The notes under the pieces are model-generated. The model had not been told where the DNA came from. It made no database searches and saw only the letters and a list, made by a program, of their open reading frames with translations. A stretch of 64,000 bases of DNA from an uncultured Bacteriovoracaceae bacterium (GTDB lineage: Bacteria; Bdellovibrionota; Bacteriovoracia; Bacteriovoracales; Bacteriovoracaceae): contig OY968777.1 in the NCBI GenBank assembly GCA_963695255.1, forward strand, positions 109,409-173,408, given 5' to 3'. Numbering within the stretch: the first letter of the stretch is position 1; each line of letters opens with the position of its first letter. The position numbers were made by a program, and so were the translations under genes. Shown one piece after another: positions 9,439-43,821 of this stretch.

Positions 9439-10968
9439 GTGAATTCCCTTCCATACAACAGTATTCCTGTAATATATAGCCGTATTAAAGAGCAGGCCAA
9501 AAGCTTTGCTAGTGGATGCAGCTCGCTGGCAGATCTAAAATTTGGTCACTTTTCTTATGGAAAAGACATAAGTCGACGCGTTGCCCAAATATTCATTCAA
9601 CGGAACTTTTCATACCTTGTTAATACCAACTCTGAAAATCAAAGTGTCGGTGCCGAGAGGAAATCAACCAGCTCATCGGATAAAATTTTTTATCGCCCTG
9701 GCCTTGGGAGGTATATATTAACCAATAAGGAAGTTTGCAGGCAATGTATTCGTTTTGTAGTCTTGTGGACCTTAATGTTTCGGCGGATACTAAGCAGCCT
9801 CGCCACGCAAGGGAACTCTTCATCCGTTTCAATATTGGATTCCGATATTGAGCCTCTAATAGGTTCTGAAGATATATCGGATTTTGTTGACTTAGAGCTT
9901 ATTAAGTCTATTGGGATAGCCGGCCCTTTGATCGCCAAGTCCCCTCGCTCTCAATTTCGAAGTAAAGAGGTGATATGTAACCGAGACCCCATAGCCTGTA
10001 TTTTGAAAGAAACTAGCTTCAGTCGTCTGCGAAAACTACGATTGATTGCCATGCATTTAATGGCCCTGTGTAGCTATTTTAAAATTGTATTTCTTGATAA
10101 GCGCTGCTCTCTACTTGCAGCGGACTTCTCGAAGATAGCTGTTTATCAGTGCTTGGATAGACTAAAATTAATAAACTTTGTTGTTAAGACCAATGCTGAC
10201 TTTGATGATCAACCAATGTGGTTCGCAGATATATCAAAAAACCTCAGAAGCGTATTTGTTTGGTATTCTACTAACTGCCTACCTATTCATTTTAAAAAGG
10301 AATTATCTAGTACTGCGCTCATAGCTAATTTTCCTCAGTACTCTTTTCTAGCATTTGACGAGAGTTATGTTTGGAATTCCTGTCAAAAGAATTGGCTTGA
10401 GAAACTTGGCTATGAAGGAAACACCCTGCATATAGGAGGCATGCCTTTTAAATTTCAAACGAACCAGAATCATTGCGCAAAAACCATGAAGCCTTCACTT
10501 GTGATATTTGATGTTACACCGGCCAAAGAAAGTTTTTTACGCTCAAGAATTATTGGACCTGATGCTTATAATTTTTATAGTTACGCGAATTCAAAACAGT
10601 TGCTTCTAGATATCTTTGAAGTTACTAAAAAAATTTCTGAAGATATCAGAATTGCAATGAAACCTAAGCGCTCCTACTCCGAGATACACGACACAAGATA
10701 TCGACAATTCATCCGGTCACAGACCTGGCTCAACATCGAGGCACATGATTCCAATATTTTAGAGCTGATAGGTAAGTCGTCGCTTGTAATCTGTACGCCA
10801 TTCACATCCCCATATTTTTTGGCGAAAAAACTGGGAGTCCCCACAGTTTTCTATGACCCCACAGGTATAATAGAATTATTGGATGAACAAAGCAGCTTCC
10901 AACTAGTCCAATCCAAGCCTGAACTTTTGGAGTGGATAACCGAAAGTCTAAAACGAACGCTCGGCTGA
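9439..10968 (+). CDS. Polysaccharide-biosynthesis protein with PFTS motif; putative GT-B-like transferase
   Basis: 509 aa. The C-terminal block SSLVICTPFTSPYFLAKKLGVPTVFYDPTG contains a literal PFTS motif and looks like a GT-B C-terminal lobe. I recall a family named for this motif but cannot verify it here. GTG start. Confidence 0.4.
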   Translation: MNSLPYNSIPVIYSRIKEQAKSFASGCSSLADLKFGHFSYGKDISRRVAQIFIQRNFSYLVNTNSENQSVGAERKSTSSSDKIFYRPGLGRYILTNKEVCRQCIRFVVLWTLMFRRILSSLATQGNSSSVSILDSDIEPLIGSEDISDFVDLELIKSIGIAGPLIAKSPRSQFRSKEVICNRDPIACILKETSFSRLRKLRLIAMHLMALCSYFKIVFLDKRCSLLAADFSKIAVYQCLDRLKLINFVVKTNADFDDQPMWFADISKNLRSVFVWYSTNCLPIHFKKELSSTALIANFPQYSFLAFDESYVWNSCQKNWLEKLGYEGNTLHIGGMPFKFQTNQNHCAKTMKPSLVIFDVTPAKESFLRSRIIGPDAYNFYSYANSKQLLLDIFEVTKKISEDIRIAMKPKRSYSEIHDTRYRQFIRSQTWLNIEAHDSNILELIGKSSLVICTPFTSPYFLAKKLGVPTVFYDPTGIIELLDEQSSFQLVQSKPELLEWITESLKRTLG

Positions 10969-12296
10969 TGAAGCTTTATATTCTTTTGATGAACTCTATT
11001 TCTCTTGAAGCAAGGCGTAGGCTAGGTCTATTTTTTAGCACTGCAGATAGAGTTTCAGCATACCTATTACTTCCATTAGTTTTGTGTTCTGAAGTCATTA
11101 ACAATCAGTCTTGGTCCGCATACTTGAATATTGGAAAAACTGTCAACGTAATCACAATTTTAGTGGCCCTTTGTCTTACTTTTAACTTGGCAAAGCCAAA
11201 GGCATGGCTAGCTTTCGTGCTTATTTTTTTTTGCGTAGCAACTGGTAGACACAACAGTCTCTTTTCAGGCTCATATATTGTAATGAAATGCCTTTTATAC
11301 GCTGGGGCGAGTGCGGCCCTTTTTATTCAGCGACCTCTTTTGATATCTCGGCAGTTTTTATTTATCAGCATGGCATCAACGCTTATGATGCTATTGCAAG
11401 TATTAGGTATAGGGGAATGGACATTATGGCTAACAACTCATGGGGCTTATGCAGACGGCCTCCAGCACTCTAAAGAATTGGTTCCTACGCTTTTTATTTC
11501 CAAAGAGAGTCTTAATTCTTCGTTTTTACAAGGTAGGCCATCTGGTTTTTTGCATTCAAATCAATTTGCCTCATTAGTCTGTATTGCCTCAATTGCGTAC
11601 TACTACCTTGTTCCTCCAACTAAAAATCGGCTACTGGCATTTATTCCATATGCAGGATTTGCAGTATTGCTATTGGCAAAGGTTGTACTTTTAAGTGTTA
11701 TTGCTATGTCAGTACTTGCATTTGGGTTAATAAAGGCGAAGCTCAGGCACTTAGTAGGAAAAATCATAATAGGCTATTTCCTCTGCATGATAATATATTA
11801 TATATTTTTTCCTGGCATCGTCAGTCAATACACAGGAGCTTATACGTTTTCAGCAAGTTTCTATTCTCGCATTTATGATATTGTAAACACGGTGCAACCT
11901 AACCGGATAGATAAAAACCCCTTACAAGCCAATATTTTGGAAAAAGTTGAGAAAAGTATAGGGCAACACGAATCAAGTAAAATAGCCCATGTTAAGCAAA
12001 TTTCTGGAATAAGCCAGTTATTGAAGGATTGGCAGTTAAATTTTTCGGTCATTCTACTATGTTTGTATATTTTTATAAAGCGCTGGCAGACAGGAATTCA
12101 GACCAATGCTATTTTAACAAATAGGGCACTAATTTATTTAGTAGGGGTATCTAGCTTTTTAATAGCCGCACCGTTTTTATATGCTCCTTCATTTTGGTTT
12201 TTTATGGGAATAGGTTTCTCGCCATTCTTTGCTAATAGTGAAAGAATGAATAAAAGGACTGTCCCTTGCTTAAGCATAACGAAAGTCGCTGGGTAA
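10968..12296 (+). CDS. Polytopic membrane protein, O-antigen polymerase/ligase-like
   Basis: About 10 or more hydrophobic segments. The ATG at 10968 overlaps the upstream stop (TGATG). No diagnostic motif. Confidence 0.4.
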   Translation: MKLYILLMNSISLEARRRLGLFFSTADRVSAYLLLPLVLCSEVINNQSWSAYLNIGKTVNVITILVALCLTFNLAKPKAWLAFVLIFFCVATGRHNSLFSGSYIVMKCLLYAGASAALFIQRPLLISRQFLFISMASTLMMLLQVLGIGEWTLWLTTHGAYADGLQHSKELVPTLFISKESLNSSFLQGRPSGFLHSNQFASLVCIASIAYYYLVPPTKNRLLAFIPYAGFAVLLLAKVVLLSVIAMSVLAFGLIKAKLRHLVGKIIIGYFLCMIIYYIFFPGIVSQYTGAYTFSASFYSRIYDIVNTVQPNRIDKNPLQANILEKVEKSIGQHESSKIAHVKQISGISQLLKDWQLNFSVILLCLYIFIKRWQTGIQTNAILTNRALIYLVGVSSFLIAAPFLYAPSFWFFMGIGFSPFFANSERMNKRTVPCLSITKVAG

Positions 12297-14387: not shown

Positions 14388-15368
14388 ATGAAGAAAGTCT
14401 ATATTATTGCTGAATTGGCCCAGAGCTATGAGGGTGATCTTGGCTTGGCGAAGAAGTTGGTCAAAGCTGCAGCTTGCAGCGGTGCAGATGCTGTTAAATT
14501 TCAAATTTTTGAATATGATGAACTATGTACTAGTGACTACGAGCATTGTGAGCTTTTTAAATCGTTAAAAATGAGTATCTCTGAATGGTCTGAAGTTATT
14601 GACTTAGCGTTAAAACTAAAAGTTGATTTTCTTGCAGATATTTTTGGGACGAAGACTTTGGATTGGATATCAAAAAAGCCTATCGCTGGCATAAAAATTC
14701 ACGGTTCAGATGTCAAAAACTTGCCTCTTCTCAAAAAGCTTCAAGGTTTCAAGAAAACTGTTTATCTTTCGGTTGGTGGTAGCCATATCAATGAGATAAC
14801 TAATGCTATCGAAATTATTGGAACAAAAGATGTAGTGTTAATGTCCGGGTTTCAAGGTGAACCGAATGTTGAGTCCGACGTCGAATTAGAAAAGATAAGG
14901 ATCTTAAAGCAAAAATTTAAGCTTAAAATAGGATATGCTGATCATATAGATGCAAATGATAGCTTAGCTATGCAGCTTCCTAGTTTTGCTGTGATTGCCG
15001 GTGCGGATGTTATCGAAAAGCATATCACTCTCGAGCGAAATTTCTTACAGCTTGAGGATTCCATATCTGCACTAAACCCGGAAGAGTTTCAAAGAATGTG
15101 TGAGAGTATTCGTAAAATCCAAAAATTTAACTGGTCGAAAGAATTTGAACTCGGCGATCGAGAAAGGAAATATAGGCTGGATACGAAAAAGGTTATTGTT
15201 GGTAGTCGAGACCTTAAAAAAGGTGACTTGATTACAGACGAAAGCCTATGCTTTCTTCGAGTAAAAGACAGACCGGAAGAGCTACTCGATATCAATGACA
15301 TCCTAGGAAAGAAAGTCACCAAAGATTTGCCGCAGTATGAACCATTTACAAAAGAACATCTTCGATGA
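14388..15368 (+). CDS. NeuB-family nonulosonic/sialic-acid synthase, divergent
   Basis: N-terminus IIAELAQSYEGDLGLAKKLVKAAACSGADAVKFQ follows the NeuB pattern, but the usual AEIG-NHNG is replaced by AELAQSYEGD. There is a C-terminal SAF-like tail (VIVGSRDLKKGDLITDESL). Confidence 0.7.
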   Translation: MKKVYIIAELAQSYEGDLGLAKKLVKAAACSGADAVKFQIFEYDELCTSDYEHCELFKSLKMSISEWSEVIDLALKLKVDFLADIFGTKTLDWISKKPIAGIKIHGSDVKNLPLLKKLQGFKKTVYLSVGGSHINEITNAIEIIGTKDVVLMSGFQGEPNVESDVELEKIRILKQKFKLKIGYADHIDANDSLAMQLPSFAVIAGADVIEKHITLERNFLQLEDSISALNPEEFQRMCESIRKIQKFNWSKEFELGDRERKYRLDTKKVIVGSRDLKKGDLITDESLCFLRVKDRPEELLDINDILGKKVTKDLPQYEPFTKEHLR

Positions 15369-17618: not shown

Positions 17619-18661
17619 TCAAAGGACATCGCTAAACTGTAATGGACTACCCTTATTTAGTTTTCGTTTTGCTTTAGAACCTATCAATCTATCTAACCAT
17701 TTAGGTTCGAGCCCAAAACCAGGACGAATTACACGGATATTTTTAGAAGAAAGCAATTCACCCTTTTCAATATTTTCAACTACGTATAGCGAGCGTCTAA
17801 AAGTTTTTTTATCTTCCGACACCGTCAATGGATAGCGTACTTCGCCCAGAGAACTGTAAGCTCGGCTGCATTCGCTTGCCATCAAAGTAAACTCAGATGG
17901 CTCAAGCGAGAATGAAGAATCGACTCCTCCATCTTTCCGATCTAAGCAAAAATGCTTTTCAATAACTCTAGCACCCAAAGCAGTGGCGGCGACTGGTACG
18001 CCTATTCCGGTAGTATGATCTGACAATCCCGTCATACATTCAAACATTGTTGCCATATGGGGAATAGTTTTAAGATGAGCGTCACTAGGACTCGCTGGAT
18101 AAGCACTGGTACATTTCAATAGTACTAGTTGAGTGCAGCCATGTCTTTTCAGAAACTCAACAGATTCTACAATTTGGGAAAGAGTCGTGGCCCAGTTGAC
18201 ATTAGAACGGGTTTTTTAGTTTCAGCAACTCTCTTTAAAAGCGCCCTATCGGTATTTTCGAACGATGCTATCTTGTAAATAGCACAATCGAGTTCTTCTA
18301 GAAAATCTACCGCTGTTATATCGAACGGAGAGCTAAATGGTATTAGAGATAGCTCTCTCGCATAATCGAATATTTTTTGATGCCACTCCCATGGAGTATG
18401 AGCTTTTTGATATAAATCATGTAGGTCATATCCATTCCACAGCGAATCCTTATCCTGAATTTTATAACAATTGGGGATCGTCATCAAGTCAGCAGTGTAC
18501 GTTTGAAGCTTTATCGCGTCCGCTCCAGAATCAGCCGCTGCTTTCACAATCTCCAGCGCACGCTCTAAGCTTTGGTTGTGGTTACCAGACATTTCAGCAA
18601 TCAAGAAAGGTCTGGTTTCTTTTCCAATTTTTTTGTCAAAAGGGAGATGAATATCTTGCAC
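17619..18661 (-). pseudogene. pseI: Pseudaminic acid synthase PseI (NeuB family), interrupted by a 1-nt frameshift
   Basis: The N-terminal ORF (18167-18661) reads FLIAEMSGNHNQSLERALEIVKAAADSGADAIKLQTY ... KKPVLMSTG and then goes out of frame. The next frame continues TTLSQIVESVEFLKRHGCTQLVLLKCTSAYPASP ... through the SAF domain (17619-18119). The frames join if one base is added at 18187-18193 (minus-strand actgggccacg). Confidence 0.85.
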
Positions 18662-18749
18662 TTAGAATTCCTTTCTTTCTTAAACTCAATCAGCCTTGAA
18701 CAATCGCCTAAAAGATGGTCTTTTTCAATGGTTTGAAATGAAGTCAGCT

Positions 18750-19798
18750 ATGGAAAAAATCAAAAAAACTCGCATCTCGTTTAGAGTTGATTCATCCTCT
18801 TCTATGGGCCTGGGCACCTTATGCGCTGTCTCACACTCGCTAAACAATTCCAACAGTACGACACTTCAATTCATTTTTTTTGTCGTAAGTCTCAAACCGA
18901 CTCAAATTATCTTGTGACTGATTCAGGCTTCGAACTCATTGAGCTCCCAGCTCTCAATATAGATGAGGAATGCCTGTTTCTCGTCTCAATTCTTGATAGT
19001 CATGGGACAGATCTTCTTGTGATCGATCACTATGACTATCTAGTAAAACACGAAACGCTTCTTCGAAAATCTCAACCTGTTCTATGTTTTGATGATACAG
19101 TTATTAGCCATAATTGCGACTTTCTAATCAACCAGCATTTTTTTTGCAAGGCCTCTCTATTTGATGACAAATTGCCATCCGGATGCAAGGTTTTCTGTGG
19201 ACCCCAATATGCTCTCATTAGAGATGATTTTCGCGAAAGTAAGTTGAGGGTGGTCAATAACACAGCCAAGGACGTAACTATTTTTGTAAGTCTGGGCGCC
19301 ACCGATAACCTAAACCTTCTTCCTAAAGTTATCCAAGTGATTGAGGAAACCTTTGTGGATGAAAGGCCTCAAATACAAATCGCAACGAGCTCCTCCAACG
19401 CGGAGCTCGTATCTCTTGAATTCCTCATCGAGCAATCCACTCTTGATATCACTCTCTCAATCGATTCTCCAAGAATTGGGGATATGATGAAAAACTCCAA
19501 TCTGGCCGTGATTGCAGGCGGCTCACTGACTCTTGAAACCTTCTATATGGAAGTCCCATCGATCGTAATACAAACTGCCCAAAATCAGTCAAAGATTGTC
19601 GCCTTCTTAGAGCAGAAAGGTCTTGCTCTTACAATTGATGGCCAAGCGAAAAACTTTTCCTACAACCTAAAAGAGCACTTACGTAAATTCTTCGATCCCA
19701 GCGTTCGCAAACAATTTCAAAAAAAACTCAATCAACTTTTTCATGAGCACTCTCAAGTGGGAGACCTCATTGTTGAAGAATTGGGGATTCAAGTTTGA
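18750..19798 (+). pseudogene. pseG: PseG (UDP-2,4-diacetamido-2,4,6-trideoxy-beta-L-altropyranose hydrolase), interrupted by a 1-nt frameshift near the N-terminus
   Basis: Frame 0 gives MEKIKKTRISFRVDSSSSMGLG. Frame 2 continues (G)HLMRCLTLAKQ ... ATSSSNAEL. Joined, these recreate the conserved FR-DSSS-IG-GH-RC-LA N-terminal motif. Frame 2 has a stop at 18788-18790, so no in-frame start can supply that motif. Confidence 0.8.
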
Positions 19799-20358
19799 AA
19801 ATTGCATTTTTAGGCAACTACTCATCTCAAAAAAGAATTATCCAGGAGCTTGAAAAATTTGGAAGAGTTTCCAGTTTTTCTCTGAAAATTGAGCCGAACT
19901 TACTCGCTCAATTTGATCTTATTATTTCTTATGGCTATCGGCATATTCTCACCGAGGTACATCTTGCTCATTGCTCACGGCCACCTTTAAATTTGCATAT
20001 CTCATATCTTCCTTTTAATAAAGGGGCCCATCCTAATTTTTGGGCATGGTACGAGGGAACGCCCCATGGAGTAAGTATTCACCATATAGATGCGGGAATC
20101 GATACTGGTGACTTGGTCTATCAGGATAAATGCGAGTTCGAGAAAGGAACCACACTTTTAAAGTCTTATCTTCTATTGAAAAAAAACATCGAAGAGCTTT
20201 TTTGTAAACATGTTGAGGATGTTGTGAGGTTTAATTACAAAAGTATACCTCAAAGAGAAGAGGGAACCTTTCACAAAGTCTCGCACCTTCCTCATTTTCA
20301 GGGTGGATGGGATCAAACCATCGAAAGTATTCGAAACCAAATTTCTAGCCAAAGATAA
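19795..20358 (+). CDS. Formyltransferase-domain protein (Fmt N-terminal-domain-like)
   Basis: 187 aa. PLNLHISYLPFNKGAHPNFWA and HHIDAGIDTGDLV match the N...H...D formyltransferase core. ATGA-type overlap with pseG. Confidence 0.65.
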   Translation: MKIAFLGNYSSQKRIIQELEKFGRVSSFSLKIEPNLLAQFDLIISYGYRHILTEVHLAHCSRPPLNLHISYLPFNKGAHPNFWAWYEGTPHGVSIHHIDAGIDTGDLVYQDKCEFEKGTTLLKSYLLLKKNIEELFCKHVEDVVRFNYKSIPQREEGTFHKVSHLPHFQGGWDQTIESIRNQISSQR

Positions 20359-20370
20359 ATTTAACTGCTT

Positions 20371-20398
20371 AGGTCGCCAGCACTTGCGTTGGCGGCCT
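20371..20398 (+). terminator. Strong stem-loop after the formyltransferase gene, without a U-tract
   Basis: aggtcgccagc / gttggcggcct forms 11 bp (2 G-U) around a 6-nt loop. It separates the pse block from the next operon. The missing T-tract makes the terminator role uncertain. Confidence 0.3.
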
Positions 20399-20480
20399 TA
20401 GAAAAGAGAGTCTCTCTTGAGTCTTTTCATTTAGCACAAATAACCTTAGTTTAAGCTCAAACAGATGAACGGAGAGGGTT

Positions 20481-21488
20481 TTGAAACTTCGCGTCGGTAT
20501 CTTAGGATACGGCTATATGGGAGAAATACGCCGCCGCGTGCTTCAAGAAATCCCTAAAGTTGACTTGGTTGCCATTTGTGAGGCAAACGAATCCAAGCTC
20601 TTGCATGAAGAACCGATTAAGGTTTGCCGAACCCCCGCGGATTTTTGGCAAACAGGGCTAGATGCCGTTTTTGTCTGTACACCTAATAATTTAATTCCCG
20701 ACCTGGCAGTCGAGGCCCTATCACGAGGTCTCCATGTATTTTGTGAAAAACCTCCAGGAAAAAACTACGAGGATATTTTGCGGATTAGGGCCAAGGAGCT
20801 AGAATCTCCAGGTAAAAAATTAATGTTTGGCTTTAACCATCGCTACCACCCAGGAATTTTGAAGGCAAAAAAATTGATTGATAGTGGGCAATTTGGAAAA
20901 TTGCTTTGGCTGCGTGGCGTATATGGCAAGTCGGGCGGCAAAAATTATGCAAAATCCTGGAGGAATAAAAAGGACGTCGCTGGAGGTGGAATTCTATTAG
21001 ACCAGGGGATTCACATGCTCGACCTGTTCAATCTCTTTGCAGGTGGCCTGGAAGAAGTGAAGGCAATGGTCACTGAAAGTCACTGGAAGTTTGGAATCGA
21101 AGACAATGCCTTTGTAATTTTGAAAAATCGGGATAATGTTCACGCAATGCTTCATTCTTCTGCAACCCAGTGGAAGCACACTTTTGAATTAAATATTGGT
21201 CTCGAGCTCGGACAACTGATCATTCAAGGCCTTTTGTCGAAAAGCGGAAGCTATGGACGAGAAACCTTGGTCATTAGGAAAAGACAGTTTGAAGATGAAA
21301 GTGAGGCGGTGGGCAATCCGATGGAGCAAATTGTGTATTTTGACAAAGATGACTCTTGGCGCATAGAAGTCGAAACGTTTGTAGATGCGATAGAGCATAA
21401 TCGCGAAATTAAAGGAAGCTCGTCTCAAGAGGCCCTTGCCGTCATGAAACTTGTCAGAGATGCCTACCAAAGCTCTGAAAACGGATAA
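20481..21488 (+). CDS. Gfo/Idh/MocA-family NAD(P)-dependent oxidoreductase
   Basis: N-terminal Rossmann VGILGYGYMG, EKP motif (HVFCEKPPG), 335 aa. TTG start preceded by ggagag. Confidence 0.8.
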   Translation: MKLRVGILGYGYMGEIRRRVLQEIPKVDLVAICEANESKLLHEEPIKVCRTPADFWQTGLDAVFVCTPNNLIPDLAVEALSRGLHVFCEKPPGKNYEDILRIRAKELESPGKKLMFGFNHRYHPGILKAKKLIDSGQFGKLLWLRGVYGKSGGKNYAKSWRNKKDVAGGGILLDQGIHMLDLFNLFAGGLEEVKAMVTESHWKFGIEDNAFVILKNRDNVHAMLHSSATQWKHTFELNIGLELGQLIIQGLLSKSGSYGRETLVIRKRQFEDESEAVGNPMEQIVYFDKDDSWRIEVETFVDAIEHNREIKGSSSQEALAVMKLVRDAYQSSENG

Positions 21489-21492
21489 TATC

Positions 21493-22449
21493 ATGGAAAA
21501 CTACATCATCCACTCAGATATCGATGGGAGAAAAATTAAGCCTGCCGATGCTTTTTTGTATTACAAGGAACTCACACAAAAAGACGTTCAGGAAAGATTC
21601 AAAAAATTAGAAGCATCGAATTGTCCAGCATGTGAGGCCAAAGATTTTGGTCATCCTTTTGACTCAATGGGGATCCCCTACGGCCAATGCTCCAATTGCT
21701 TGACGGTCTATGCCACCTCTCGACCCTCAGAAGATGATATTGAGCAATTTTATTTAAATTCTCCTGCTCGATCGTTTTGGGGTGATGTGATTTGGAAAAA
21801 CTCGGAAGAAGAGAGGATCCAAAAAATCCTAACTCCTTTGGTTGATTGGATAGCAAGAGAGTATTCCCAAAAAGAGAAAAACCAAGGTCTCGAGCTCGCA
21901 ACACTTAACGCTACTCATCCTGTGCTGCAAAATCTATTACAAAAACAGCAGTTTACTTGTAGAGATAAAAGACCTTATTACGAGAACCAGGAGGGCCCAG
22001 CTACCGCCAATGTTGACGGAGTTGTGCTGATTGACACGCTTGATAGAGCTCATCAACCAAGCAAGCTTTTGCAACAAGCATCTTCTTTTCTAAAAGAAAG
22101 GGGGAAGGTCCACCTCACATTCACCCTCTCAACAGGGATTGATTTTCTTGAGCTAGGCCAGCATCATCCCCAGCTTTTTCCTCCGGATCGCCTCAACTGT
22201 TTGAGCTACGAAGGGGCCTGCCAGCTTTTCGAAAAAAATGGGTTCACTATTGAAGAATTCAGCACTCCCGGTGTTTTGGACCTTCAATATCTGGAGCAAA
22301 ATGTTCAAAAAATTCATTCTCCATCCTTAAAATATCTTTTGGAAAAGAGAAACTCTGAGTTCGAAAAAAAGCAAACAATTGAATTTTTACAAAAAAACAA
22401 ACTGAGCTCTCTTGCAAGAGTTCAACTCAAAAAAGGACGCTCTCTATGA
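21493..22449 (+). CDS. Zinc-ribbon protein with degenerate class I methyltransferase fold
   Basis: CPAC...CSNC ribbon. The later block DGVVLIDTLDRAHQPSKLL...GKVHLTF resembles methyltransferase motifs II-III. The motif I position reads LELATLNATHP, with no glycines. I prefer the ATG at 21493 to the track start at 21451. Confidence 0.45.
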   Translation: MENYIIHSDIDGRKIKPADAFLYYKELTQKDVQERFKKLEASNCPACEAKDFGHPFDSMGIPYGQCSNCLTVYATSRPSEDDIEQFYLNSPARSFWGDVIWKNSEEERIQKILTPLVDWIAREYSQKEKNQGLELATLNATHPVLQNLLQKQQFTCRDKRPYYENQEGPATANVDGVVLIDTLDRAHQPSKLLQQASSFLKERGKVHLTFTLSTGIDFLELGQHHPQLFPPDRLNCLSYEGACQLFEKNGFTIEEFSTPGVLDLQYLEQNVQKIHSPSLKYLLEKRNSEFEKKQTIEFLQKNKLSSLARVQLKKGRSL

Positions 22450-23054
22450 CCTATGCGGAAAAATATTTCGAGCAAGTTCAGGCCATCGCAAAGAACATTG
22501 ACTTAGAAAAAGTGGAGGCCATGTTGTCGACTCTTTTAAAGACGAGAGAAAATGAGGGTAGAGTTTTTTTTCTCGGCGTCGGGGGGAGTGCTGCCAATTG
22601 CACTCATGCGGTCAATGACTTCCGTAAGATTGGTGGAATTGAGTGCTATAGCCCCGTTGATAATGTGGCCGAACTCACAGCGCGAACAAATGATGAAGGC
22701 TGGGAAACCGTTTTTAAAGAATATCTCAAAACCAGCAAACTGAGCTCCAAAGATGCTGTTTTCATCTTCAGTGTTGGTGGTGGTAATAAAGAAAAAAATG
22801 TCAGCGCTAATCTCGTTTTTGCTATGGATTATGCCAAAGAAATTGGTGCTAAAATCCTTGGAATTGTCGGTCGAGACGGGGGCCATTGCAAAAAAATTGG
22901 CGATAATGTCATTGTGATTCCAACTCAAAGTCAAGATACCATCACGCCTCACGCTGAGGCCTGGCAAGCTGTGATTTGGCATATGTTGGTCTCCGATCCA
23001 CGCATGATGGTGATGTCCAATAAATGGGAATCCATTGAAAAGGCCTCTCTGTGA
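22446..23054 (+). CDS. SIS-domain sugar-phosphate isomerase (GmhA/PtmF-like size)
   Basis: 202 aa. FFLGVGGSAANCTHAVNDF matches the SIS phosphosugar-binding loop. ATGA overlap with the upstream gene. Confidence 0.75.
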   Translation: MTYAEKYFEQVQAIAKNIDLEKVEAMLSTLLKTRENEGRVFFLGVGGSAANCTHAVNDFRKIGGIECYSPVDNVAELTARTNDEGWETVFKEYLKTSKLSSKDAVFIFSVGGGNKEKNVSANLVFAMDYAKEIGAKILGIVGRDGGHCKKIGDNVIVIPTQSQDTITPHAEAWQAVIWHMLVSDPRMMVMSNKWESIEKASL

Positions 23055-23829
23055 TAGACCTTGCTCGCTCTAAGCGGCTGAGAGATGCTTTCAGAAATCG
23101 GGACCAAGTGTTTTCAACATGGACCTCGATCCCTTCCGCTCAAATCGCTGAGGCCTTTACTTTTGTTAATGCCGATTGTGTCTCGATTGATATTGAGCAT
23201 GGAACGGCCAGCTTTGAAGACTGTCAGAGGATTATTGCTGCGGCACAGTCTAATGGACAGTGCTGCCTGCCCAGAATCTCCTACCACTCTATGGAAATGA
23301 TCAAACGTCTCTGCGATTCTGGAGCAGATGGAGTGATTGTTCCCATGGTCGAGACCTGTGAACAGGTTGAAAATCTAATTCAATGGTTAAAGTACCCCCC
23401 TGTTGGCAATCGTAGTTTTGGTATTAACCGTGCACAAAGTTATGGACTAGGCTTCGACGAGTATGTCTCAGCATGGAATCAGTCGTCGTCTCTCATTTTG
23501 CAAATTGAATCTATTCAGGGCGTGCAAAACATAGATGCCCTGCTTTCTTATGAAGAAGTTGATGGAGTCATGGTAGGCCTTATGATCTTTCCGGAAGCCT
23601 AGGAGTGCCCGGCAAGATCAATCACCCCACTGTTATTGAGGCGGCCAACCATGTCGTTGCACAGGCGAAATTAAAGGGCAAGACAAGTGGAACCCAAATC
23701 TCTCGGCCTACGCGTGAGAACCTGGCATTGACCAAGGCCCAAGACTACAACTTTATTGTTCTCTCTTCAGATATTTTTCTTTTATGGGAATGGGCAGAAA
23801 GAATAAATCATCTGATTTCTTTAGAGTAG
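23051..23829 (+). pseudogene. HpcH/HpaI-family (class II, pyruvate-dependent) aldolase, interrupted by a 1-nt frameshift
   Basis: Frame A ends ...EEVDGVMVG-LMIFPEA*. The next frame reads (P)YDLSGSLGVPGKINHPTVIEAANHVV..., which is the conserved G-P-x-DL-S block of the family. Restored by one extra C at 23578-23579 (ggcctt to ggccctt). Confidence 0.75.
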
Positions 23830-23833
23830 CACC

Positions 23834-24472
23834 ATGTACAGCCGTGAAAAATTCAAAGTCATTGTGCTCGATTTTGACGGTGTGATTATCGAGTCGAATC
23901 ATATAAAGCATAACGGTTTTGAAAAAATTTTTAGACCCTATGCGAATCAGTTTGATCAGATTTGGGAATATCACCTTTCTCATCCCGCGACACCACGTTC
24001 TGAAAAATTTGATTTTATTCTGGCCAATCTTCTTCCCGAGCTCTCTCCATCAATCAAAAGCGAATGGCTCCAAGAATTTCATGAGCTGACCTACGATGCG
24101 ATTCTCCAATCCAGTTTTGTACCGGGGGCCTTGGAGTTTTTAGAAAAATATTCCAAAATGGTCCCAATGTATCTTGCCTCTGCGACACCTCAAGAAACAC
24201 TCAATTCAATTCTAAAGTTCAGAGAGCTCAAGCGATATTTTCGAAAAATTTTTGGTGCCCCTTCAAACAAAGCTCGCATCTTAGAACAAATCGTATCGGG
24301 CTGTTCGATTCCCTCCCGAGAGCTTCTTTTTATCGGAGATGCGATGACTGATCTTCTGGCCTCCCAGCAGGCAAAGACTTCATTTTTGGGGCGTGACAGT
24401 GGGGACCCTTTCCCTAAAGCAACTATCGTCAAAAAAGACTTTATAGAAATTGATCAATACCTAGAGTCTTAA
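23834..24472 (+). CDS. HAD-superfamily phosphatase (subfamily IA-like)
   Basis: Motif I VIVLDFDGVIIES and motif IV FIGDAMTDL. 212 aa. Confidence 0.8.
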   Translation: MYSREKFKVIVLDFDGVIIESNHIKHNGFEKIFRPYANQFDQIWEYHLSHPATPRSEKFDFILANLLPELSPSIKSEWLQEFHELTYDAILQSSFVPGALEFLEKYSKMVPMYLASATPQETLNSILKFRELKRYFRKIFGAPSNKARILEQIVSGCSIPSRELLFIGDAMTDLLASQQAKTSFLGRDSGDPFPKATIVKKDFIEIDQYLES

Positions 24473-24482
24473 AGGAATAAAT

Positions 24483-25259
24483 ATGAGCTATCTTGAAAAA
24501 ATGTTTAATCTTGAAGGAAAAGTGGCGGCCATCACAGGAGCAGGCGGTATGCTTTGCGGTGAGATGGCGAAAGGCCTTGCCCGTACCGGGGTAAAAATCC
24601 TCGTGCTCGATCAAAGAAAAGAAAAGGCCGACGCTGTCGTCAAAGAGATTGAATCCAATGGTGGAGAGGCCTTTCCCCTCGCCCACCAGGCCACTGAAAA
24701 GGAAAGCTTCGAAGAAGCTCTGAAAGTTTGTCTAAAACAATATGGCAAATGTGATGTTTTAATTAATGGTGCGGGCATAAACGCACCAACTCCCTTGCTG
24801 GAGATTTCAGAGCAAGAATGGGATGAAATTCTCGCTGTCCATTTGAAAGGCACTCTTTTTGGATGCCAGGTTTTTGGAAAAATGATGCTAGAAAAAGGCG
24901 GTGGATCCATCGTTAATATGAGCTCGGCTTCCGCTGGCCCTCCTCTTTCAAAAGCTTTTGCGTACTCCGTCGCTAAATCGGGAATTCACAACTTAACACA
25001 AAACGTGGCTAGAGAGTGGGCGAGCGCGGGAGTTCGCGTTAATGCACTCCGGCCTGGTTTTTTTCCAACGGAGTGGAGCCAAAAGCATTTTATCGACGAA
25101 AAACGCAAAGAAGCGATTTGGGGACACACCCCTGCAGGGCGATACGGAAGGCCAGACGAGCTTTTGGGTGCTGTTTTGTGGCTTTGCTCGGATGCGGCGA
25201 GCTTTGTCACCGGTTCAGAGGTCACTGTGGATGGCGGATTTTCTTGTATGACGATTTAG
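24483..25259 (+). CDS. Short-chain dehydrogenase/reductase (SDR)
   Basis: ITGAGGMLCG cofactor motif, NGAG, catalytic YSVAKSG (YxxxK). Confidence 0.85.
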   Translation: MSYLEKMFNLEGKVAAITGAGGMLCGEMAKGLARTGVKILVLDQRKEKADAVVKEIESNGGEAFPLAHQATEKESFEEALKVCLKQYGKCDVLINGAGINAPTPLLEISEQEWDEILAVHLKGTLFGCQVFGKMMLEKGGGSIVNMSSASAGPPLSKAFAYSVAKSGIHNLTQNVAREWASAGVRVNALRPGFFPTEWSQKHFIDEKRKEAIWGHTPAGRYGRPDELLGAVLWLCSDAASFVTGSEVTVDGGFSCMTI

Positions 25260-25275
25260 AATAAAAGGAAAAAGC

Positions 25276-26025
25276 GTGCAGAAAACAATTGTTGTCACCG
25301 GAAGCTCCCAGGGGATCGGCCGGGTTCTCGTTGAACAGTTTGCCAAAAATGGCGATCAAGTCATTGCCTGTGCCCGAAAAGGAAATGAATGGAGTCAAAA
25401 CATTCCTGCAAATGTTAAATTTTTTGAATTTGACCTCACGAAGCGCAACTCTCACTTCCAACTTGTCGAAGAGGCAATCAAATGGAGCGGAAAAATTGAT
25501 GTCTATATCAACAACCTGGGACTTTCTGCCTGGATGCCGCTTCAAGAAATTGATGAAGACTTTGCGAAAAAGATGATTGAAACCAATTTGTTAAGTGCTC
25601 TTTGGGGCTCACAGGCCTTTGCAGAAAAAGCGAGCAAAGACTCGTGCCTTATTAATATTTCCAGCCTAGCGGGCAAGCGAGGCTCGGCCAACAATGGACT
25701 CTACTGCGCCTCAAAATTTGCGGTCAATGGCCTCACTCAATCATTGGCAAAAGAGCTGGGCCCTCGAGGAATCCGGGTCAATGCGGTTTGCCCTGTTTAC
25801 ATAAAAACTCATAATTTGCTTGAGGCCCTCGAAGATAAGAACTCCCCTACTGCGGGTGGAGACACTGATCAATATTTCGAGAATTTTTCTCAATCCCAAA
25901 CAGCGCTCAAGCGGCTTCCTTTGGCAGAGGAGATTGCATCCACTTGTCTCTTTCTCGCGTCCCAAGCCGCATCGGGGATCACCGGCCAGTGCCTAAACGT
26001 TGATTGCGGAGTCATGCCCCAATGA
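25276..26025 (+). CDS. Short-chain dehydrogenase/reductase (SDR)
   Basis: VTGSSQGIGR, NNLG, catalytic YCASKFA. GTG start after aaagga. Confidence 0.85.
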   Translation: MQKTIVVTGSSQGIGRVLVEQFAKNGDQVIACARKGNEWSQNIPANVKFFEFDLTKRNSHFQLVEEAIKWSGKIDVYINNLGLSAWMPLQEIDEDFAKKMIETNLLSALWGSQAFAEKASKDSCLINISSLAGKRGSANNGLYCASKFAVNGLTQSLAKELGPRGIRVNAVCPVYIKTHNLLEALEDKNSPTAGGDTDQYFENFSQSQTALKRLPLAEEIASTCLFLASQAASGITGQCLNVDCGVMPQ

Positions 26026-26800
26026 TCGCTGGTCAAAAAATTGCTGCTATTATCCCTGCGCGAATGGGCTCCTCAAGGTTTCCAGGGAAGCCTTTGGTGA
26101 AAATTCTTGGACTGGCAATGATTGAACATGTGCGAAGAAGGGCCCTTCGAATGGATTTCATCGATGAAGTTATTGTCGCAACTTGTGATCAAGAAATCCA
26201 AACACTTGTCGAATCTCATGGTGGCCGCGTTATTATGACATCAAACACGCACGAACGGTGTACGGATCGAATTGAAGAGGCCGCTCGCCAACTCTCTGCA
26301 GAGATTATCGTCAATATTCAAGGTGATGAGCCGATGGTCGCAGAGGACGCCATTCGTAGAGTCATCGAACCTTTTGAAAATGCAAAATCGCTCAACTGTA
26401 GCTGCGTTATCTATCCCATCACTGAGGACCTTGAATTTCATAGTGTGAATATTGTGAAAACAGTCTTGTCGTTAGAGAAAAAAATTCTTTATTTTTCTCG
26501 GCCCCCATCCCTTCAAATACCAGGAGCTCTGGAACAAAGATTTTTAAGCAATCAGGGATTATGGCCTTTCGAAAAAAATTCTTGCATCAATTTTCAACCT
26601 TGCACGAAGGCCCGCTTGAGCAATCTGAATCGGTAGACATGCTTCGAGTTCTTGAAAATGGAGGAGAAATCCAGGGAGTGCTCTCTGATTTTGAAAGCAA
26701 AGGAGTCGATACACCGGAGCAAGTTGAGATGATTGAAAAACTCATCAAAAACAACAGTGAAGAATATAGAATCTACCAAGAGATTGCTCATGATATCTAA
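26022..26800 (+). pseudogene. KdsB/NeuA-type CMP-sugar-acid cytidylyltransferase, interrupted by a 1-nt frameshift
   Basis: N-terminus IAAIIPARMGSSRFPGKPL and IVNIQGDEP are KdsB-family motifs. The reading ...ILYFSR-PPSLQ... leaves the family pattern. The next frame gives (A/P)PIPSNT...SGIMAFRKKFLHQFSTLHEGPLEQSESVDMLRVLENGGEI. Restored by one extra base at cgg/ccccc, 26499-26506. Confidence 0.75.
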
Positions 26801-27725
26801 AAAAGTGGCCGTTTGCTCTCGAACTTTTTCCAAGCATCAAGTTTTGAGAGCAGAAACACTCGCACTTTTTTCAAATGTGAAGTTTAATGATGACGGACTT
26901 GCTCTCTCTGAAGAAAGTCTGGTGAATTTTCTTGAAGACTGCGTTGGTTGCATCATCGCTCTTGAGCCTATGCAGCGAGATGTTTTGGCAAAACTTCCTG
27001 CCCTAAAGTTTCTTTCAAAATACGGAGTCGGTCTTGATAATCTCGATCTAGAGGCAATTAATGATTACTCTGTTCACCTAGGACATACCGCAGGGGTAAA
27101 TAGACGTTCCGTAAGTGAGTTGGCCCTTGCCCTTATTCTTAATTGCTTAAGAAAAATTTCTCTTCACGACCGAGAAGTGAAGCAAGGAAATTGGAAAAAT
27201 AAAGGTGGGCAAACCCTTTCGGGAAAAAACATAGGAATTATCGGCTTCGGCAGAATAGGTCAGGATTTCGCAAAAATCGTAAAGGGATTCGGAACGTCTA
27301 TTCAAGTCTACGATACTGAAGACAAAGAGCTGGAGGCTAAAGCGCTCGACTGTAAAGCTACCTCACTGCCGGAACTTTTAGAGTCCAGTGATATCATCAC
27401 TCTTCATGTCCCCTTCCAACCCAGTACGCATAACCTTATCGCTGAGAACGAACTTAATCTCATGAAAAAAAATGCCATTCTCATTAATACTTCCCGCGGA
27501 GGCGTTGTCGATGAAACCGCTCTCTTCCAAGCACTCAAGCTTGAAAAGATTGCGGCAGCAGCGTCTGATGTTTTTGTAAATGAACCATTAAACGCTACAT
27601 CCCCCCTGCTCCAACTTGATAATTTTACCGCGACACCACATATTGGAGGAAGCTCCGATGAGTCTATTCTGGCAATGGGTCGGGCCGCCATTTCAAACTT
27701 GAAACATTTATTTGAAGAGTCTTAA
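26790..27725 (+). CDS. D-isomer-specific 2-hydroxyacid dehydrogenase family (PGDH-like)
   Basis: NAD motif GIIGFGRIGQDFA; catalytic-region blocks INTSRGGVVDE and TPHIGGSS. The ATG at 26790 overlaps the upstream stop region. Confidence 0.8.
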   Translation: MISKKVAVCSRTFSKHQVLRAETLALFSNVKFNDDGLALSEESLVNFLEDCVGCIIALEPMQRDVLAKLPALKFLSKYGVGLDNLDLEAINDYSVHLGHTAGVNRRSVSELALALILNCLRKISLHDREVKQGNWKNKGGQTLSGKNIGIIGFGRIGQDFAKIVKGFGTSIQVYDTEDKELEAKALDCKATSLPELLESSDIITLHVPFQPSTHNLIAENELNLMKKNAILINTSRGGVVDETALFQALKLEKIAAAASDVFVNEPLNATSPLLQLDNFTATPHIGGSSDESILAMGRAAISNLKHLFEES

Positions 27726-27727
27726 CA

Positions 27728-28648
27728 ATGAGCCCCCTTTCTTTTGCTTTAATTGTTCCAACCAAAGATCGACCTGAGGATCTCAAAAAGCTTCTTCGAT
27801 CTATCCAAGGACAGACCCGCAGACCTGAACATATTATTATTGTCGACGGATCAGATCATCCGGTCCATGACCTTGTAAATGGGTTTAAAGACCTCGAAAT
27901 TCAATACATTCCAGTAAGGCCACCTTCGCTTCCCAAACAGAGAAATGTTGGACTCAAAAATGTTCCGTCCAATATCAAGTGGATAGGCTTTTTAGACGAC
28001 GATCTTGTGCTTGAAAACTCAACCCTCGCATCCTTAGAAGATTTTCTAAAAGGATGCCCTTCCTCTGTCCAGGGATGTGGGCTGAGCATCATCAATCAGC
28101 CTTCAGCAAAAGGAAAATTCTTCAATCGTTTTTTTCTTCTCGACGACGGTCCTGGAAAAATTACATCATCAGGTTTTCCCAGCGAGATCCCTTTTTCTCC
28201 AGAAAACTCTATTCAGGTGGATTGGCTCTACGGTGGCGCCACCTTTTGGTCGAAAGCCGTGATCGAAACAACACATTTTGATGAGTGGTTCAAGGGAACT
28301 GGCTACATGGAAGATGTTGATTTTTCTTATCGTGTCTCACGGGAACATGAGCTTATGATTTGCTCAAGCGCAAAGTGCCACCACTTTCATCACCCGATCA
28401 AAGAAGAAAAGTTTCAAAGCATTGGAAAGTGGCAGCTGACCTCTTGGTGGTATTTTGTCCAGAAACATGGGTCATTTTCTCTCATTGCTTTTCTTTGGAG
28501 TGCTACAGGAATTTTGCTGAGAAATACCCTGGCGATGCTGATAACGGGATTTTCACGTTCTTATCGCCTGAAAGTCAGGGGAAACCTTCAAGGACTTCTC
28601 TCAATCTTCACCGGTGCCTACATCAAAGAAAAAGGCTTTCAAAAATGA
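27728..28648 (+). CDS. Glycosyltransferase family 2
   Basis: LIVPTKDRPEDLKKLL...IIIVDGSD and FLDDD (DxD) are GT-A signatures. Confidence 0.75.
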   Translation: MSPLSFALIVPTKDRPEDLKKLLRSIQGQTRRPEHIIIVDGSDHPVHDLVNGFKDLEIQYIPVRPPSLPKQRNVGLKNVPSNIKWIGFLDDDLVLENSTLASLEDFLKGCPSSVQGCGLSIINQPSAKGKFFNRFFLLDDGPGKITSSGFPSEIPFSPENSIQVDWLYGGATFWSKAVIETTHFDEWFKGTGYMEDVDFSYRVSREHELMICSSAKCHHFHHPIKEEKFQSIGKWQLTSWWYFVQKHGSFSLIAFLWSATGILLRNTLAMLITGFSRSYRLKVRGNLQGLLSIFTGAYIKEKGFQK

Positions 28649-41678: not shown

Positions 41679-41777
41679 GATGGAAAAGAATTATGCGACG
41701 ACCTGTGCATTGTCGAGGTTTTTTACGGAGCACTCTCAAAGTTGTCATCTCCTCGGAACACCAGGATAATTTTTGAG

Positions 41778-42710
41778 ATGACTCATTATCTTAACTTACT
41801 AGGATTTCTTTTTTTCCTGAATATTGCCGCATGCTCCATTTTTGCCCAGAGCTTAGGGACTCAAGAAGTCTTCACGGCCCTTCTTCCTGAGGGAGCAATT
41901 ATTTGGGAAGTTGGGAGTAATACTCCGGTCAAAATTCCAAGAGCAATCCTGGTAGAGGTTTATCCAGAGGCCGACGCCCGAGGATTTCAATATCTCAAAA
42001 CTAAGGACAAAAATAAAAAATACCGGGCACGCCTGACTGATCTTGTTCATATCGACCAGGTCTCAGATCTCAAGGAAAGACCTGAGCTCTACCAAGAGTA
42101 CAGACCTTTGGCATCTCATCGCTCTGATTTATGGGAAAAGCTCTATGGTTCTGTGCAAATTCAGCTTCACACTCAAAATTATGGCGGGGAAATTATCCAG
42201 TCTTTTAATTCCGCTTATTCTGAGGCGAGCGGACAAGGATTGCGATTCAGTGGGCTACATTATTTTGGTTGGGGACAGGCCTTCATGGCGGGTGTAAATT
42301 TTAATTACGAACAGGCCAGTTATGAACAAGCAGGTCAAAAACTTTTGGATTATAAATCCTTTTCTTTGGGCCCAAGCTTTGACTACCGTTTTTTTGCACC
42401 GGAAGACATCAATTTTCATCTCGCGCTTCATGGCCAATTTGCTTTTTTTTCCCGGTATGATCCTCTTGAGACTTTGGTGGCCAGCGAAGAGGACCAAAAC
42501 AATCAAACCGGCTCTGTAAGAACGGCCCTAGAAATGAGCTTTGCAGTCCACTTTCCCTGGAGAACCGATGAGACAATTTTAGGAATGAACATCAGGCGCC
42601 AGTGGCCTGGTCTCACTGACCTCTCCAGCTATGGAGAACCTTTCAGGCCAGAAGACACAATTGGAATTTTTGTAGCACACAGATTTGGGGAGGTTTGGTC
42701 TGTTCATTAA
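41778..42710 (+). CDS. Secreted/outer-membrane hypothetical protein
   Basis: Signal-peptide-like MTHYLNLLGFLFFLNIAACSIFAQS. Aromatic-rich alternating stretches (SLGPSFDYRFF, FHLALHGQFAFF) and a C-terminal aromatic residue region. The track start at 41742 (TTG) is possible. Confidence 0.55.
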   Translation: MTHYLNLLGFLFFLNIAACSIFAQSLGTQEVFTALLPEGAIIWEVGSNTPVKIPRAILVEVYPEADARGFQYLKTKDKNKKYRARLTDLVHIDQVSDLKERPELYQEYRPLASHRSDLWEKLYGSVQIQLHTQNYGGEIIQSFNSAYSEASGQGLRFSGLHYFGWGQAFMAGVNFNYEQASYEQAGQKLLDYKSFSLGPSFDYRFFAPEDINFHLALHGQFAFFSRYDPLETLVASEEDQNNQTGSVRTALEMSFAVHFPWRTDETILGMNIRRQWPGLTDLSSYGEPFRPEDTIGIFVAHRFGEVWSVH

Positions 42711-42711
42711 G

Positions 42712-43821
42712 ATGGCCTTGCTCTCTGGCCTACTCCTATCATTTCATTCCCGAGGCGAGGCCCTCGAAGGAGTCGTCACTGTTTTAGAAACGGCACTCTT
42801 TAGCGGTCGAGATTTAGGCCAACCTATTGATGATCGCCCAGTCGTAGAAAGAAAAAGAAGAGGCGAGAAAGTGACCCTTCATCCTTTCTACTTGCGAGAG
42901 GAACAATTTCGCGAACAACAGACCAGGGACTTTTCGTTTGAAGAATATGAACGCCGCTATCCAGATCAATTTTTAGCAGTCGATGAAAAGATTTATGCTG
43001 AAGAATTACTCGATCCTCAATATTATGTCGTTCTCGATAGTCGCGGTCGCAAGGCCTTTATAAAACGCTCCCATATTTATGTGTACTTCAAAACTCCGCG
43101 AGAGTTTGATCAAACTGTTCACAATCTAAAAACTGATCCCACCGACTACCGCTTACCAGAACCTCTACGTCCAGAGACCTACCCATTTGTAGCGCTCGAA
43201 AAAAAGCAAACCTATATGGGACATCTTCTTCTTGGCGCCGGGACAAGCTCTACGAAATCTTATCCATACGAATTAAGCGGTGTAGACGAACAAAGAAAAG
43301 CAAAGTTTCATGGACAACTCGCTTGGCACAAGGCACCCGCCTGGAGCAAAGAAGGGAATTTTTTATGGGGTGCCGCTGTGGCCTTTGAATCCTGGAATCA
43401 AGAATACCGCTTTGAGGGGACCGATCGTTTTGCCAGAGAGTCTTGGCTTGAACTCTCAATCGGCCCGTCGTTTTATTACAATCCTATTTTAGAAAATCGC
43501 TACCGCCTGGGGATTCTCACCCAGTTCTACTTGCCGCTTATTATGCAAAATGAAATATCTCAAACAGATAGTAGCGGGTTAGGCGATGTCCGAAAATTTA
43601 AAACCTGGGCGCCTTCGGCCCATCTCGGTGTTTTATTTGAGATCAAAGAAGCTATAGGGATTCTAGATTTTGCTATAGGGCCATCAATTAAAGTGAGACT
43701 TCCATCCCAGGTGAACAGTGATGAAAGTGCAGTTGTTCCCAGCTTTTGGAATGACCAACCCTACGAACAAAGCCTGAGTGTTGAAATCAGTTTTTTGGCC
43801 GGCCTGCAGGCAAGAATGTAG
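42712..43821 (+). CDS. Secreted/outer-membrane hypothetical protein, distant paralog of the preceding gene
   Basis: Signal peptide MALLSGLLLSFHSRGEA. Shares the S-[LI]-GPSF-Y motif with the upstream product. The ATG lies 1 nt after the upstream stop. Confidence 0.55.
   Translation: MALLSGLLLSFHSRGEALEGVVTVLETALFSGRDLGQPIDDRPVVERKRRGEKVTLHPFYLREEQFREQQTRDFSFEEYERRYPDQFLAVDEKIYAEELLDPQYYVVLDSRGRKAFIKRSHIYVYFKTPREFDQTVHNLKTDPTDYRLPEPLRPETYPFVALEKKQTYMGHLLLGAGTSSTKSYPYELSGVDEQRKAKFHGQLAWHKAPAWSKEGNFLWGAAVAFESWNQEYRFEGTDRFARESWLELSIGPSFYYNPILENRYRLGILTQFYLPLIMQNEISQTDSSGLGDVRKFKTWAPSAHLGVLFEIKEAIGILDFAIGPSIKVRLPSQVNSDESAVVPSFWNDQPYEQSLSVEISFLAGLQARM

Follow-up and report, generated by a model that had tools for sequence, protein, structure and literature searches.

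In a window of 64,000 nucleotides (the whole stretch of DNA analysed here) from an uncultured Bacteriovoracaceae bacterium, four genes of a glycan locus are each interrupted by a frame break of one base. The locus thereby raises the question of whether the organism is losing the synthesis of pseudaminic acid and of a sugar acid or whether the interruptions lie in the sequence record. We consider it most likely that the four breaks are one-base consensus errors of an assembly that was itself probably built from long reads, and not mutations of the organism.

Four frame breaks in the glycan locus

A first-pass annotation had described four frame switches in this locus, each one base short and located in a short run of G or C, and all four are present in the sequence where it placed them (Table 1). 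The runs at sites 1 to 4 are GGG, GGG, CC and CCCCC. Every run lies at a GGCC or 2 nt away from one, and one extra base per site is needed to fuse the frames. Site 1, seen by three-frame reading and placed at genome position 127598 by frameshift-aware alignment to the orthologue of the relative G003, reads on the plus strand as a GGCC at 18189-18192 and a C run at 18191-18193. The GGG of site 2, found by three-frame reading, lies 2 nt past a GGGCC at 18806-18810.

Table 1. Broken genes and their break sites (window positions)
Feature	Gene or product	Position	Strand	Details
Site 1	pseI (pseudaminic acid synthase)	18189-18193	minus	one-base deficit at GGGCC, minus-strand CTGGGCCAC
Gene, two pieces	pseI	17619-18661	minus	N-terminal 18167-18661, C-terminal 17619-18119
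Site 2	pseG	18812-18814	plus	one-base deficit at GGG (CTGGGCAC)
Gene, split in window	pseG (UDP-2,4-diacetamido-2,4,6-trideoxy-beta-L-altropyranose hydrolase)	18750-19798	plus	
Site 3	HpcH/HpaI-type aldolase	23576-23579	plus	one-base deficit at AGGCCTT (three-frame reading, frameshift-aware alignment)
Gene, two pieces	HpcH/HpaI-family aldolase	23051-23829	plus	23051-23602 and 23605-23829
Site 4	KdsB-like cytidylyltransferase	26500-26506	plus	one-base deficit at GGCCCCC (three-frame reading, frameshift-aware alignment)
Gene, two pieces	CMP-sugar (KdsB-like) cytidylyltransferase	26004-26800	plus	26004-26636 and 26561-26800

Each broken gene carries a single lesion, with profile matches that continue on both sides of it and with conserved motifs. 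The two pieces of pseI match positions 2-142 (216 bits) and 167-327 (210 bits) of the NCBIfam profile TIGR03586 (PseI), each half alone scoring below the cut-off of 340 bits, and in Pfam they match NeuB at 1-121 and 146-239, plus SAF; the open frame of the C-terminal piece extends to about 18166. The aldolase matches Pfam HpcH_HpaI at 5-150 of 221 positions and the NCBIfam HpaI-like profile at 3-170 of 249, and its two halves are seamless and in the same frame in 17 metagenome loci. The cytidylyltransferase matches Pfam CTP_transf_3 at 1-202 of 217 and NCBIfam NF009905 at 2-197 of 243, with both halves in the same frame in 7 metagenome loci. Three-frame reading and the Pfam and NCBIfam profiles revealed neither in-frame stops nor larger deletions in the four genes.

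Frame breaks across the genome and their GGCC context

The first-pass annotation had also held that such breaks are confined to 8.4 kb. Within the window this is correct: its remainder yielded no other break, with homology covering 33.6 of the 64 kb, and none of ten further ORFs scanned for split domains was split (six of the ten have no Pfam family). The claim does not extend to the genome. We searched ORFs from 2.8 of the 3.44 Mb of G003, a relative at the family level, against the 2.48 Mb genome by tblastn, which covered 1.18 Mb. This census recovered sites 1, 3 and 4 and, beyond these, about 22-25 HSP pairs that are adjacent and collinear but lie in different frames, compared with one pair in the wrong order and none on the wrong strand as controls. 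A frameshift-aware scan of alignment ends added site 2 and three weaker candidates (controls 0-1). Together, the two approaches yielded about 25-30 additional single-base frame breaks elsewhere in the genome, and we estimate that 50-130 gene-splitting consensus errors exist in the whole of it. An ab initio census with a 7-state, 3-periodic Markov HMM found three of the four sites in the genome, but also 310 ordinary gene junctions of similar geometry, and it was set aside as too unspecific.

Among the genes split elsewhere are pheT, sufC, ftsA, hemL, clpA and trmFO, named after the NCBIfam assignments of their orthologues. For ftsA, sufC, pheT and trmFO the genome yielded no other match of similar score; for hemL and clpA a weaker second match is present. 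A cell could hardly live with a split pheT. Outside the locus, deficits and surpluses are about equally frequent, whereas all four locus breaks are deficits.

We examined the sequence context of the breaks, and GGCC was the most enriched of all 256 4-mers within 10 nt of them (12 of 26 sites versus 2.9 expected, p = 8.5e-6). Of the 22 sites outside the locus, 8 have a GGCC no more than 6 nt away, compared with 10% of random covered positions. The motif is over-represented in the genome; because it is not avoided, no GGCC restriction system is indicated. The genome encodes a single cytosine-5 DNA methyltransferase, for which M.HaeIII was one of many similar matches in a PDB comparison that extended over the catalytic domain only, so that no specificity is readable from it.

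The four locus breaks lie at 10-40 times the detected genome average, which is about one break per 47 kb of covered sequence. The first-pass annotation had put the chance of such a cluster at about 0.01, a figure that leaves out the genome-wide background of breaks. In simulations, the probability of at least four breaks falling in 8.4 kb was 0.003, 0.026, 0.16 and 0.55 for 27, 50, 80 and 120 breaks genome-wide, respectively, so that the cluster is only marginally unusual against this background, with P 0.03-0.55 according to how many breaks the genome really has. A locally raised GGCC content as the source of the cluster was ruled out: the locus holds 53 GGCC in 8.3 kb, a normal density (one per 168 bp genome-wide), and the local density of breaks is above the genome average even so. 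GC skew places the origin at about 562 kb and the terminus at about 1700 kb. A coverage gradient was likewise discarded: the interval of 1.2-1.7 Mb is somewhat richer in breaks, but on average their distance from the origin exceeds the uniform expectation by only about 1.3 SE, and the glycan locus lies away from the terminus.

Independent contigs from run ERR12040027

Logan contigs of run ERR12040027, the only further data set found, provided an independent reading of some of these sites. The interior of contig L009 reads GGGG at site 2, which places a frame-restoring G inside pseG; there the gene is a single ORF of 349 aa (L009:562-1611) without a stop, and its product matches TIGR03590 (PseG) at positions 2-279 of 280 with 208.5 bits (cut-off 153.55). 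The same contig begins at site 1 with a run one base longer and ends 4 nt past site 3, where it reads GGCCCTTA versus GGCCTTAT in the window; at these two sites its evidence consists of 2-4 bases at contig tips. Contig L011 starts at site 4 with a garbled tip, in which 3 nt are missing just upstream and the C5 run is the same, and L154 starts at a break in a uvrD-like gene (genome 2034436). Contig L153 lacks the surplus G of the assembly at genome 253407 and has A7 versus A6 in the assembly at genome 246822, inside a tRNA methyltransferase gene.

Overall, all three breaks that are spanned by a Logan contig (site 2 and genome positions 253407 and 246822) read intact there, and no break was reproduced. 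At four breaks a contig ends, and of the 12 contig ends, 9 have a GGCC within 5 nt. A HaeIII-type library artefact was ruled out, the ends not falling exactly at GG|CC.

Over 28 kb, 9 SNPs separate the Logan contigs from the assembly, most of them transitions (6 of 7 in L154), and the run may represent a slightly different strain. Its intact alleles would then be no proof that the genes are intact in the assembled one. Six of 12 queries returned no Logan contig, among them pheS, chosen as a way to the pheT break; short contigs or differing start-codon calls are the likely cause. A literature search returned no publication on the run accession. The GTDB species set holds no sister strain, since every relative in it is of a different genus and shares 30-38% identity in DnaG, and no near-identical strain was found in the JGI metagenomes (best match, 73% amino-acid identity).

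Weighing the explanations

The reading that we favour, consensus error, would involve a process acting genome-wide on a single-contig assembly and giving both missing and extra bases. Such errors would concentrate at or beside GGCC, above all where a further G or C extends the motif. In PacBio and ONT bacterial assemblies, G/C homopolymers that are 1 bp short and gene-splitting indels have been described, with hundreds of extra CDS (PMC11649196). The breaks reported here resemble such long-read indels in being single-base changes at short G/C runs that turn genes into two adjacent ORFs, in hitting essential genes genome-wide and in being at odds with independent data. They differ in that the runs measure only 2-5 nt and the errors follow GGCC, not run length. 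With modification-linked base-calling errors in native-DNA nanopore assemblies they share the concentration at one short palindromic motif genome-wide, at which contigs made from the reads likewise break; the genome also has a cytosine-5 DNA methyltransferase. The GGCC effect may stem from base modification or from some other motif-specific base-calling problem, and the local excess may reflect chance or a reduced coverage of a glycan island peculiar to the strain. The first-pass annotation had named local homopolymer under-calling in a long-read assembly as one of its two readings, without deciding between them. The evidence favours this reading, although the breaks also occur genome-wide and in core genes and are not purely under-calls: elsewhere surpluses match deficits in frequency, and what the sites share is GGCC, not the length of the run.

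Its other reading, genuine decay, would here mean that some or all of the four deletions are real, that pseudaminic-acid and sugar-acid synthesis was recently lost and that the intact sequences of ERR12040027 come from a sister or co-occurring strain. We regard this as unlikely. Several neighbouring glycan-synthesis genes are interrupted, as in the decay of surface-glycan genes in niche-restricted bacteria; glycan loci are often variable and dispensable, the density of breaks in the locus is far above the genome average, the natural-looking SNPs between the Logan contigs and the assembly suggest that two strains may exist, and no contig contradicts site 4. Decay of that kind would not, however, be expected to leave lesions that are all alike, one in each gene, nor to place them at the motif that marks the breaks of the assembly in essential genes; none of the four genes has a further lesion, a stop codon or a more extensive deletion. 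The genome-wide census, which the first-pass annotation had itself proposed as a test against decay, hit core genes (pheT, sufC, ftsA, hemL, clpA and trmFO) as well, and the pseG break, the only one of the four that an independent contig spans, is absent from that contig. At the other three sites, the contig ends point to ambiguity among the reads and not to a clean allele.

Far less probable is a heterogeneous population in which both run lengths coexist, as a glycan switch resembling phase variation that arises at a mutational hot spot linked to GGCC; one allele would then have entered the assembly and the other the k-mer contigs. Two abundant alleles would give the pattern seen at 7 of 7 frame-break sites examined, at which Logan contigs end or differ, and phase variation classically targets glycan genes; in the slipped-strand systems of Campylobacter, Haemophilus and Neisseria, it is likewise G/C tracts in pse and other glycan genes that change in length by one base. 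Known phase-variable homopolymer tracts measure about 8 nt or more, however, and the runs of 2-5 bases seen here are far below the tracts known for useful slippage rates, which bears out the remark of the first-pass annotation that they are too short for phase variation. Moreover, the same changes affect pheT, sufC, ftsA and further genes with essential or housekeeping roles, in which on/off switching would be senseless, and the differences elsewhere include an inserted G that is not in a homopolymer. We give slightly less credence still to a GGCC-directed process, for example a lesion associated with a methyltransferase or nuclease and its ±1 repair, that makes real, coexisting and heritable on/off variants; the glycan locus would then be a hot spot because switching of surface sugars is tolerated or favoured. 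Programmed recoding, in which ribosomal −1 frameshifting or transcriptional slippage would restore the proteins, fits the same −1 type of correction being needed at all four local breaks but can practically be dismissed, given that sites 1-4 have no slippery heptamer or long homopolymer, that relatives, the Logan contig and the metagenome loci (17 and 7) have plain single ORFs instead, and that both shift directions occur elsewhere in the genome.

Taken at face value, the breaks would signal an apparent loss of pseudaminic-acid and sugar-acid synthesis with an altered surface or flagellar glycan, and they would inflate pseudogene counts. They are probably a problem of data quality and not of gene decay, and the genome record should be polished or its split ORFs distrusted. 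Errors that follow GGCC may point to a base-calling problem specific to that motif and possibly linked to methylation. The genes for PseI, PseG, the aldolase and the cytidylyltransferase are most likely intact in the bacterium itself.

Frame breaks in the glycan genes

Reading of the ORF listing and of all three frames of the window showed that conserved genes of the glycan locus (~8.4 kb) resume in frame at four places only when one extra base is supplied (see the table). In pseG, HLMRCLTLAKQF is read one frame on from the conserved FRVDSSSSMGLG block. Relatives encode their PseI orthologues in one ORF each (345-369 aa), and in metagenome relatives the two halves of the aldolase and of the cytidylyltransferase are contiguous, in the same frame and within a single ORF at 17 and 7 loci, respectively. 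Because of these frame readings and the single ORFs of relatives, the first-pass annotation was right about the sequence itself: all four frame breaks are present, and each is a deficit of exactly one base at a short G/C run. GGCC is found at, or within 2 nt of, every one of the four sites.

The operon that holds the aldolase and the cytidylyltransferase is tightly packed; its SIS gene, together with the neighbouring aldolase, has relatives chiefly on marine metagenome contigs (52-73% identity). A second NeuB-family synthase, intact, is encoded 3 kb upstream of pseI and scores 176 and 137 bits, under the NeuB and PseI equivalog cut-offs.

Features of the window and genome discussed in the text (window coordinates unless marked as genome)
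Feature	Coordinates	Strand	Details
Site 1, pseI	GGCC 18189-18192; C run 18191-18193 (both plus-strand)	minus	switch at CTGGGCCAC; frame reading
pseI fragment	18167-18661	minus	NCBIfam PseI profile 2-142; Pfam NeuB 1-121
pseI fragment	17619-18119	minus	NCBIfam PseI profile 167-327; Pfam NeuB 146-239
Site 2, pseG	18812-18814		switch at GGG, 2 nt past a GGGCC; three-frame reading
Site 3, HpcH/HpaI-type aldolase	23576-23579		AGGCCTT; ...DGVMVG, then PYDLSGSLG... in another frame
Site 4, KdsB-like cytidylyltransferase	26500-26506		GGCCCCC; ...KILYFSR, then (x)PIPSNTR... in another frame
Second NeuB-family synthase	14388-15368		intact
Glycan operon	20481-28648		oxidoreductase, methyltransferase-like protein, SIS isomerase, aldolase, HAD hydrolase, two SDRs, KdsB-like cytidylyltransferase, 2-hydroxyacid dehydrogenase, GT2
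Adjacent large ORFs	9439-12296; 41742-43821		four ORFs: 509, 454, 322, 378 aa
GGCC instances	18189; 23576; 26500		
Breaks outside the window	genome 487868; 1024204; 1302373; 1631620; 2084832; 2223536; ~20 more		single-base
SNP tract	genome 2034672-2036643		7 SNPs (6 transitions), contig L154 vs assembly
Cytosine-5 DNA methyltransferase	genome 1889428-1890435; L155:1363-2526	minus (L155)	387 aa; outside the window

Frame breaks across the genome

The genome is a single contig of 2,483,271 bp with 42% G+C, in which the window occupies positions 109409-173408. Frame tracking with an ab initio HMM was dropped because it did not tell frameshifts from ordinary gene junctions. We turned to a homology census, for which a complete family-level relative supplied 2.8 Mb of sequence; the ORFs translated from it were searched against the genome with tblastn. 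Of the genome, 1.18 Mb was covered by homology at E < 1e-8; within the window the figure was 33.6 kb. The census recovered sites 1, 3 and 4 as adjacent collinear HSP pairs in different frames, together with ~22-25 further frame-break sites outside the window; control pairs in the wrong order or on the wrong strand numbered 1 and 0, respectively. Each switch was placed and typed by frameshift-aware alignment, according to which one-base deficits are about as frequent as surpluses at breaks outside the locus. A scan of the ends of 1098 genes detected site 2 weakly and added three new candidates (0-1 on reversed sequence). Neither approach revealed an additional break within the window, 33.6 kb of which was covered by homology, so the proposed confinement to the locus stands for the window and fails genome-wide. 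The four large adjacent ORFs elsewhere in the window match no Pfam family at E <= 0.001 and overlap by 25-37 nt in each pair, so homology does not exclude a frame break there.

The genome-wide census, which the first-pass annotation had called for, showed that housekeeping genes are also affected. Genes split elsewhere include ftsA, clpA, hemL, sufC, pheT and trmFO (NCBIfam names, from orthologues), as well as a uvrD-like helicase, speA, a dehydrogenase E2 subunit, several sensor kinases and others. For ftsA, sufC, pheT and trmFO, the genome yielded no other copy with a similar score, and hemL and clpA each have one weaker second match. The phenylalanyl-tRNA synthetase beta subunit gene pheT is split at residue ~250 of 810. 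It is difficult to see how a cell could live with pheT, sufC and ftsA split, so some of the frame breaks in the record, at least, must be errors, and the whole record needs polishing.

Independent contigs and the GGCC context

Exact-protein look-ups identified the Logan contigs of run ERR12040027, which are independent of the assembly, as the only other data set found with this organism. Contig L009 spans window positions 18189-23582 and carries GGGG in pseG, vs GGG in the window, resulting in a 349-aa ORF above the PseG equivalog cut-off. Its ends fall exactly on sites 1 and 3, where the terminal bases (2 and 4 nt, respectively) show the longer run. L011 starts at site 4, where its tip is garbled, and is therefore uninformative for that site. 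L153 lacks the extra G of the assembly at genome 253407 (in an mtgA-like gene, and also detected by the census) and has A7 vs A6 at genome 246822 inside a tRNA methyltransferase gene, a break that the census missed, and L154 begins 8 nt past the uvrD-like break at genome 2034436. In total, contigs spanned three of the seven frame-break sites examined, all three intact, the remaining four were contig ends, and none of the seven breaks was confirmed. Nine of 12 contig ends lie <=5 nt from GGCC. Ambiguity of the reads at such motifs, settled differently by the two methods of consensus building, would be expected to leave this pattern.

Over 28 kb, 9 SNPs separate the contigs from the assembly; most are transitions, and the run may therefore hold a slightly different strain. 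Seven of the SNPs lie within 2 kb in L154, followed by none in the next 6 kb, which looks like a strain mixture or a recombination tract.

No 4-mer was more enriched than GGCC within 10 nt of the 26 sites (12 observed vs 2.9 expected, p = 8.5e-6), and GGCC lies within 6 nt of 8 of the 22 break sites outside the locus, compared to 10% of random covered positions. Genome-wide, GGCC is over-represented, with 14,767 sites (3x the mononucleotide and 1.7x the second-order Markov expectation), whereas other 4-bp palindromes are near 1.0; its density is not raised in the locus relative to the genome. The genome has only one cytosine-5 DNA methyltransferase gene, and no obvious restriction gene was seen among the neighbouring ORFs.

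Clustering and origin of the breaks

In the covered sequence, the census detected ~1 break per 47 kb. With a margin for genes that were not covered and for terminal breaks that escaped detection, we estimate 50-130 breaks genome-wide. The first-pass annotation had put the chance of four breaks within 8.4 kb at ~0.01, a figure not upheld by a scan simulation with the genome-wide background: the probability of at least four in any 8.4 kb was 0.026, 0.16 and 0.55 for 50, 80 and 120 breaks, and that of at least three was 0.12 for the census itself. The clustering is thus at best marginally significant. If the clustering has a real cause, it may be that a strain-specific glycan island was less deeply covered; the locus has 44-46% G+C, above that of the genome, and the best matches of its genes lie outside the family. 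Ori-ter position does not account for the cluster.

We consider it likely that the breaks are consensus indel errors of a probably long-read assembly, which would include a motif-linked component at GGCC. Gene-splitting indels and G/C runs one base short are documented in PacBio/ONT bacterial assemblies (PMC11649196), and gene-splitting indels at G/C runs are likewise what we see here. Of the two readings offered earlier, this one is favoured over genuine decay, which is improbable even for some of the sites, as all lesions are of one kind and lie at GGCC, the motif that marks breaks in essential genes, and pseG is intact in the ERR12040027 contigs. Phase-variation-like heterogeneity is very improbable, since the runs are too short for classical phase variation, as had been pointed out, and housekeeping genes are also involved. 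Programmed recoding, which would require a slippery site that is missing here and a conserved break that is not conserved, can practically be dismissed.

The breaks exist in the record and, most likely, are consensus errors of the assembly and not a biological feature. Until the record is polished, the pseI, pseG, aldolase and cytidylyltransferase genes are best annotated as probably intact.
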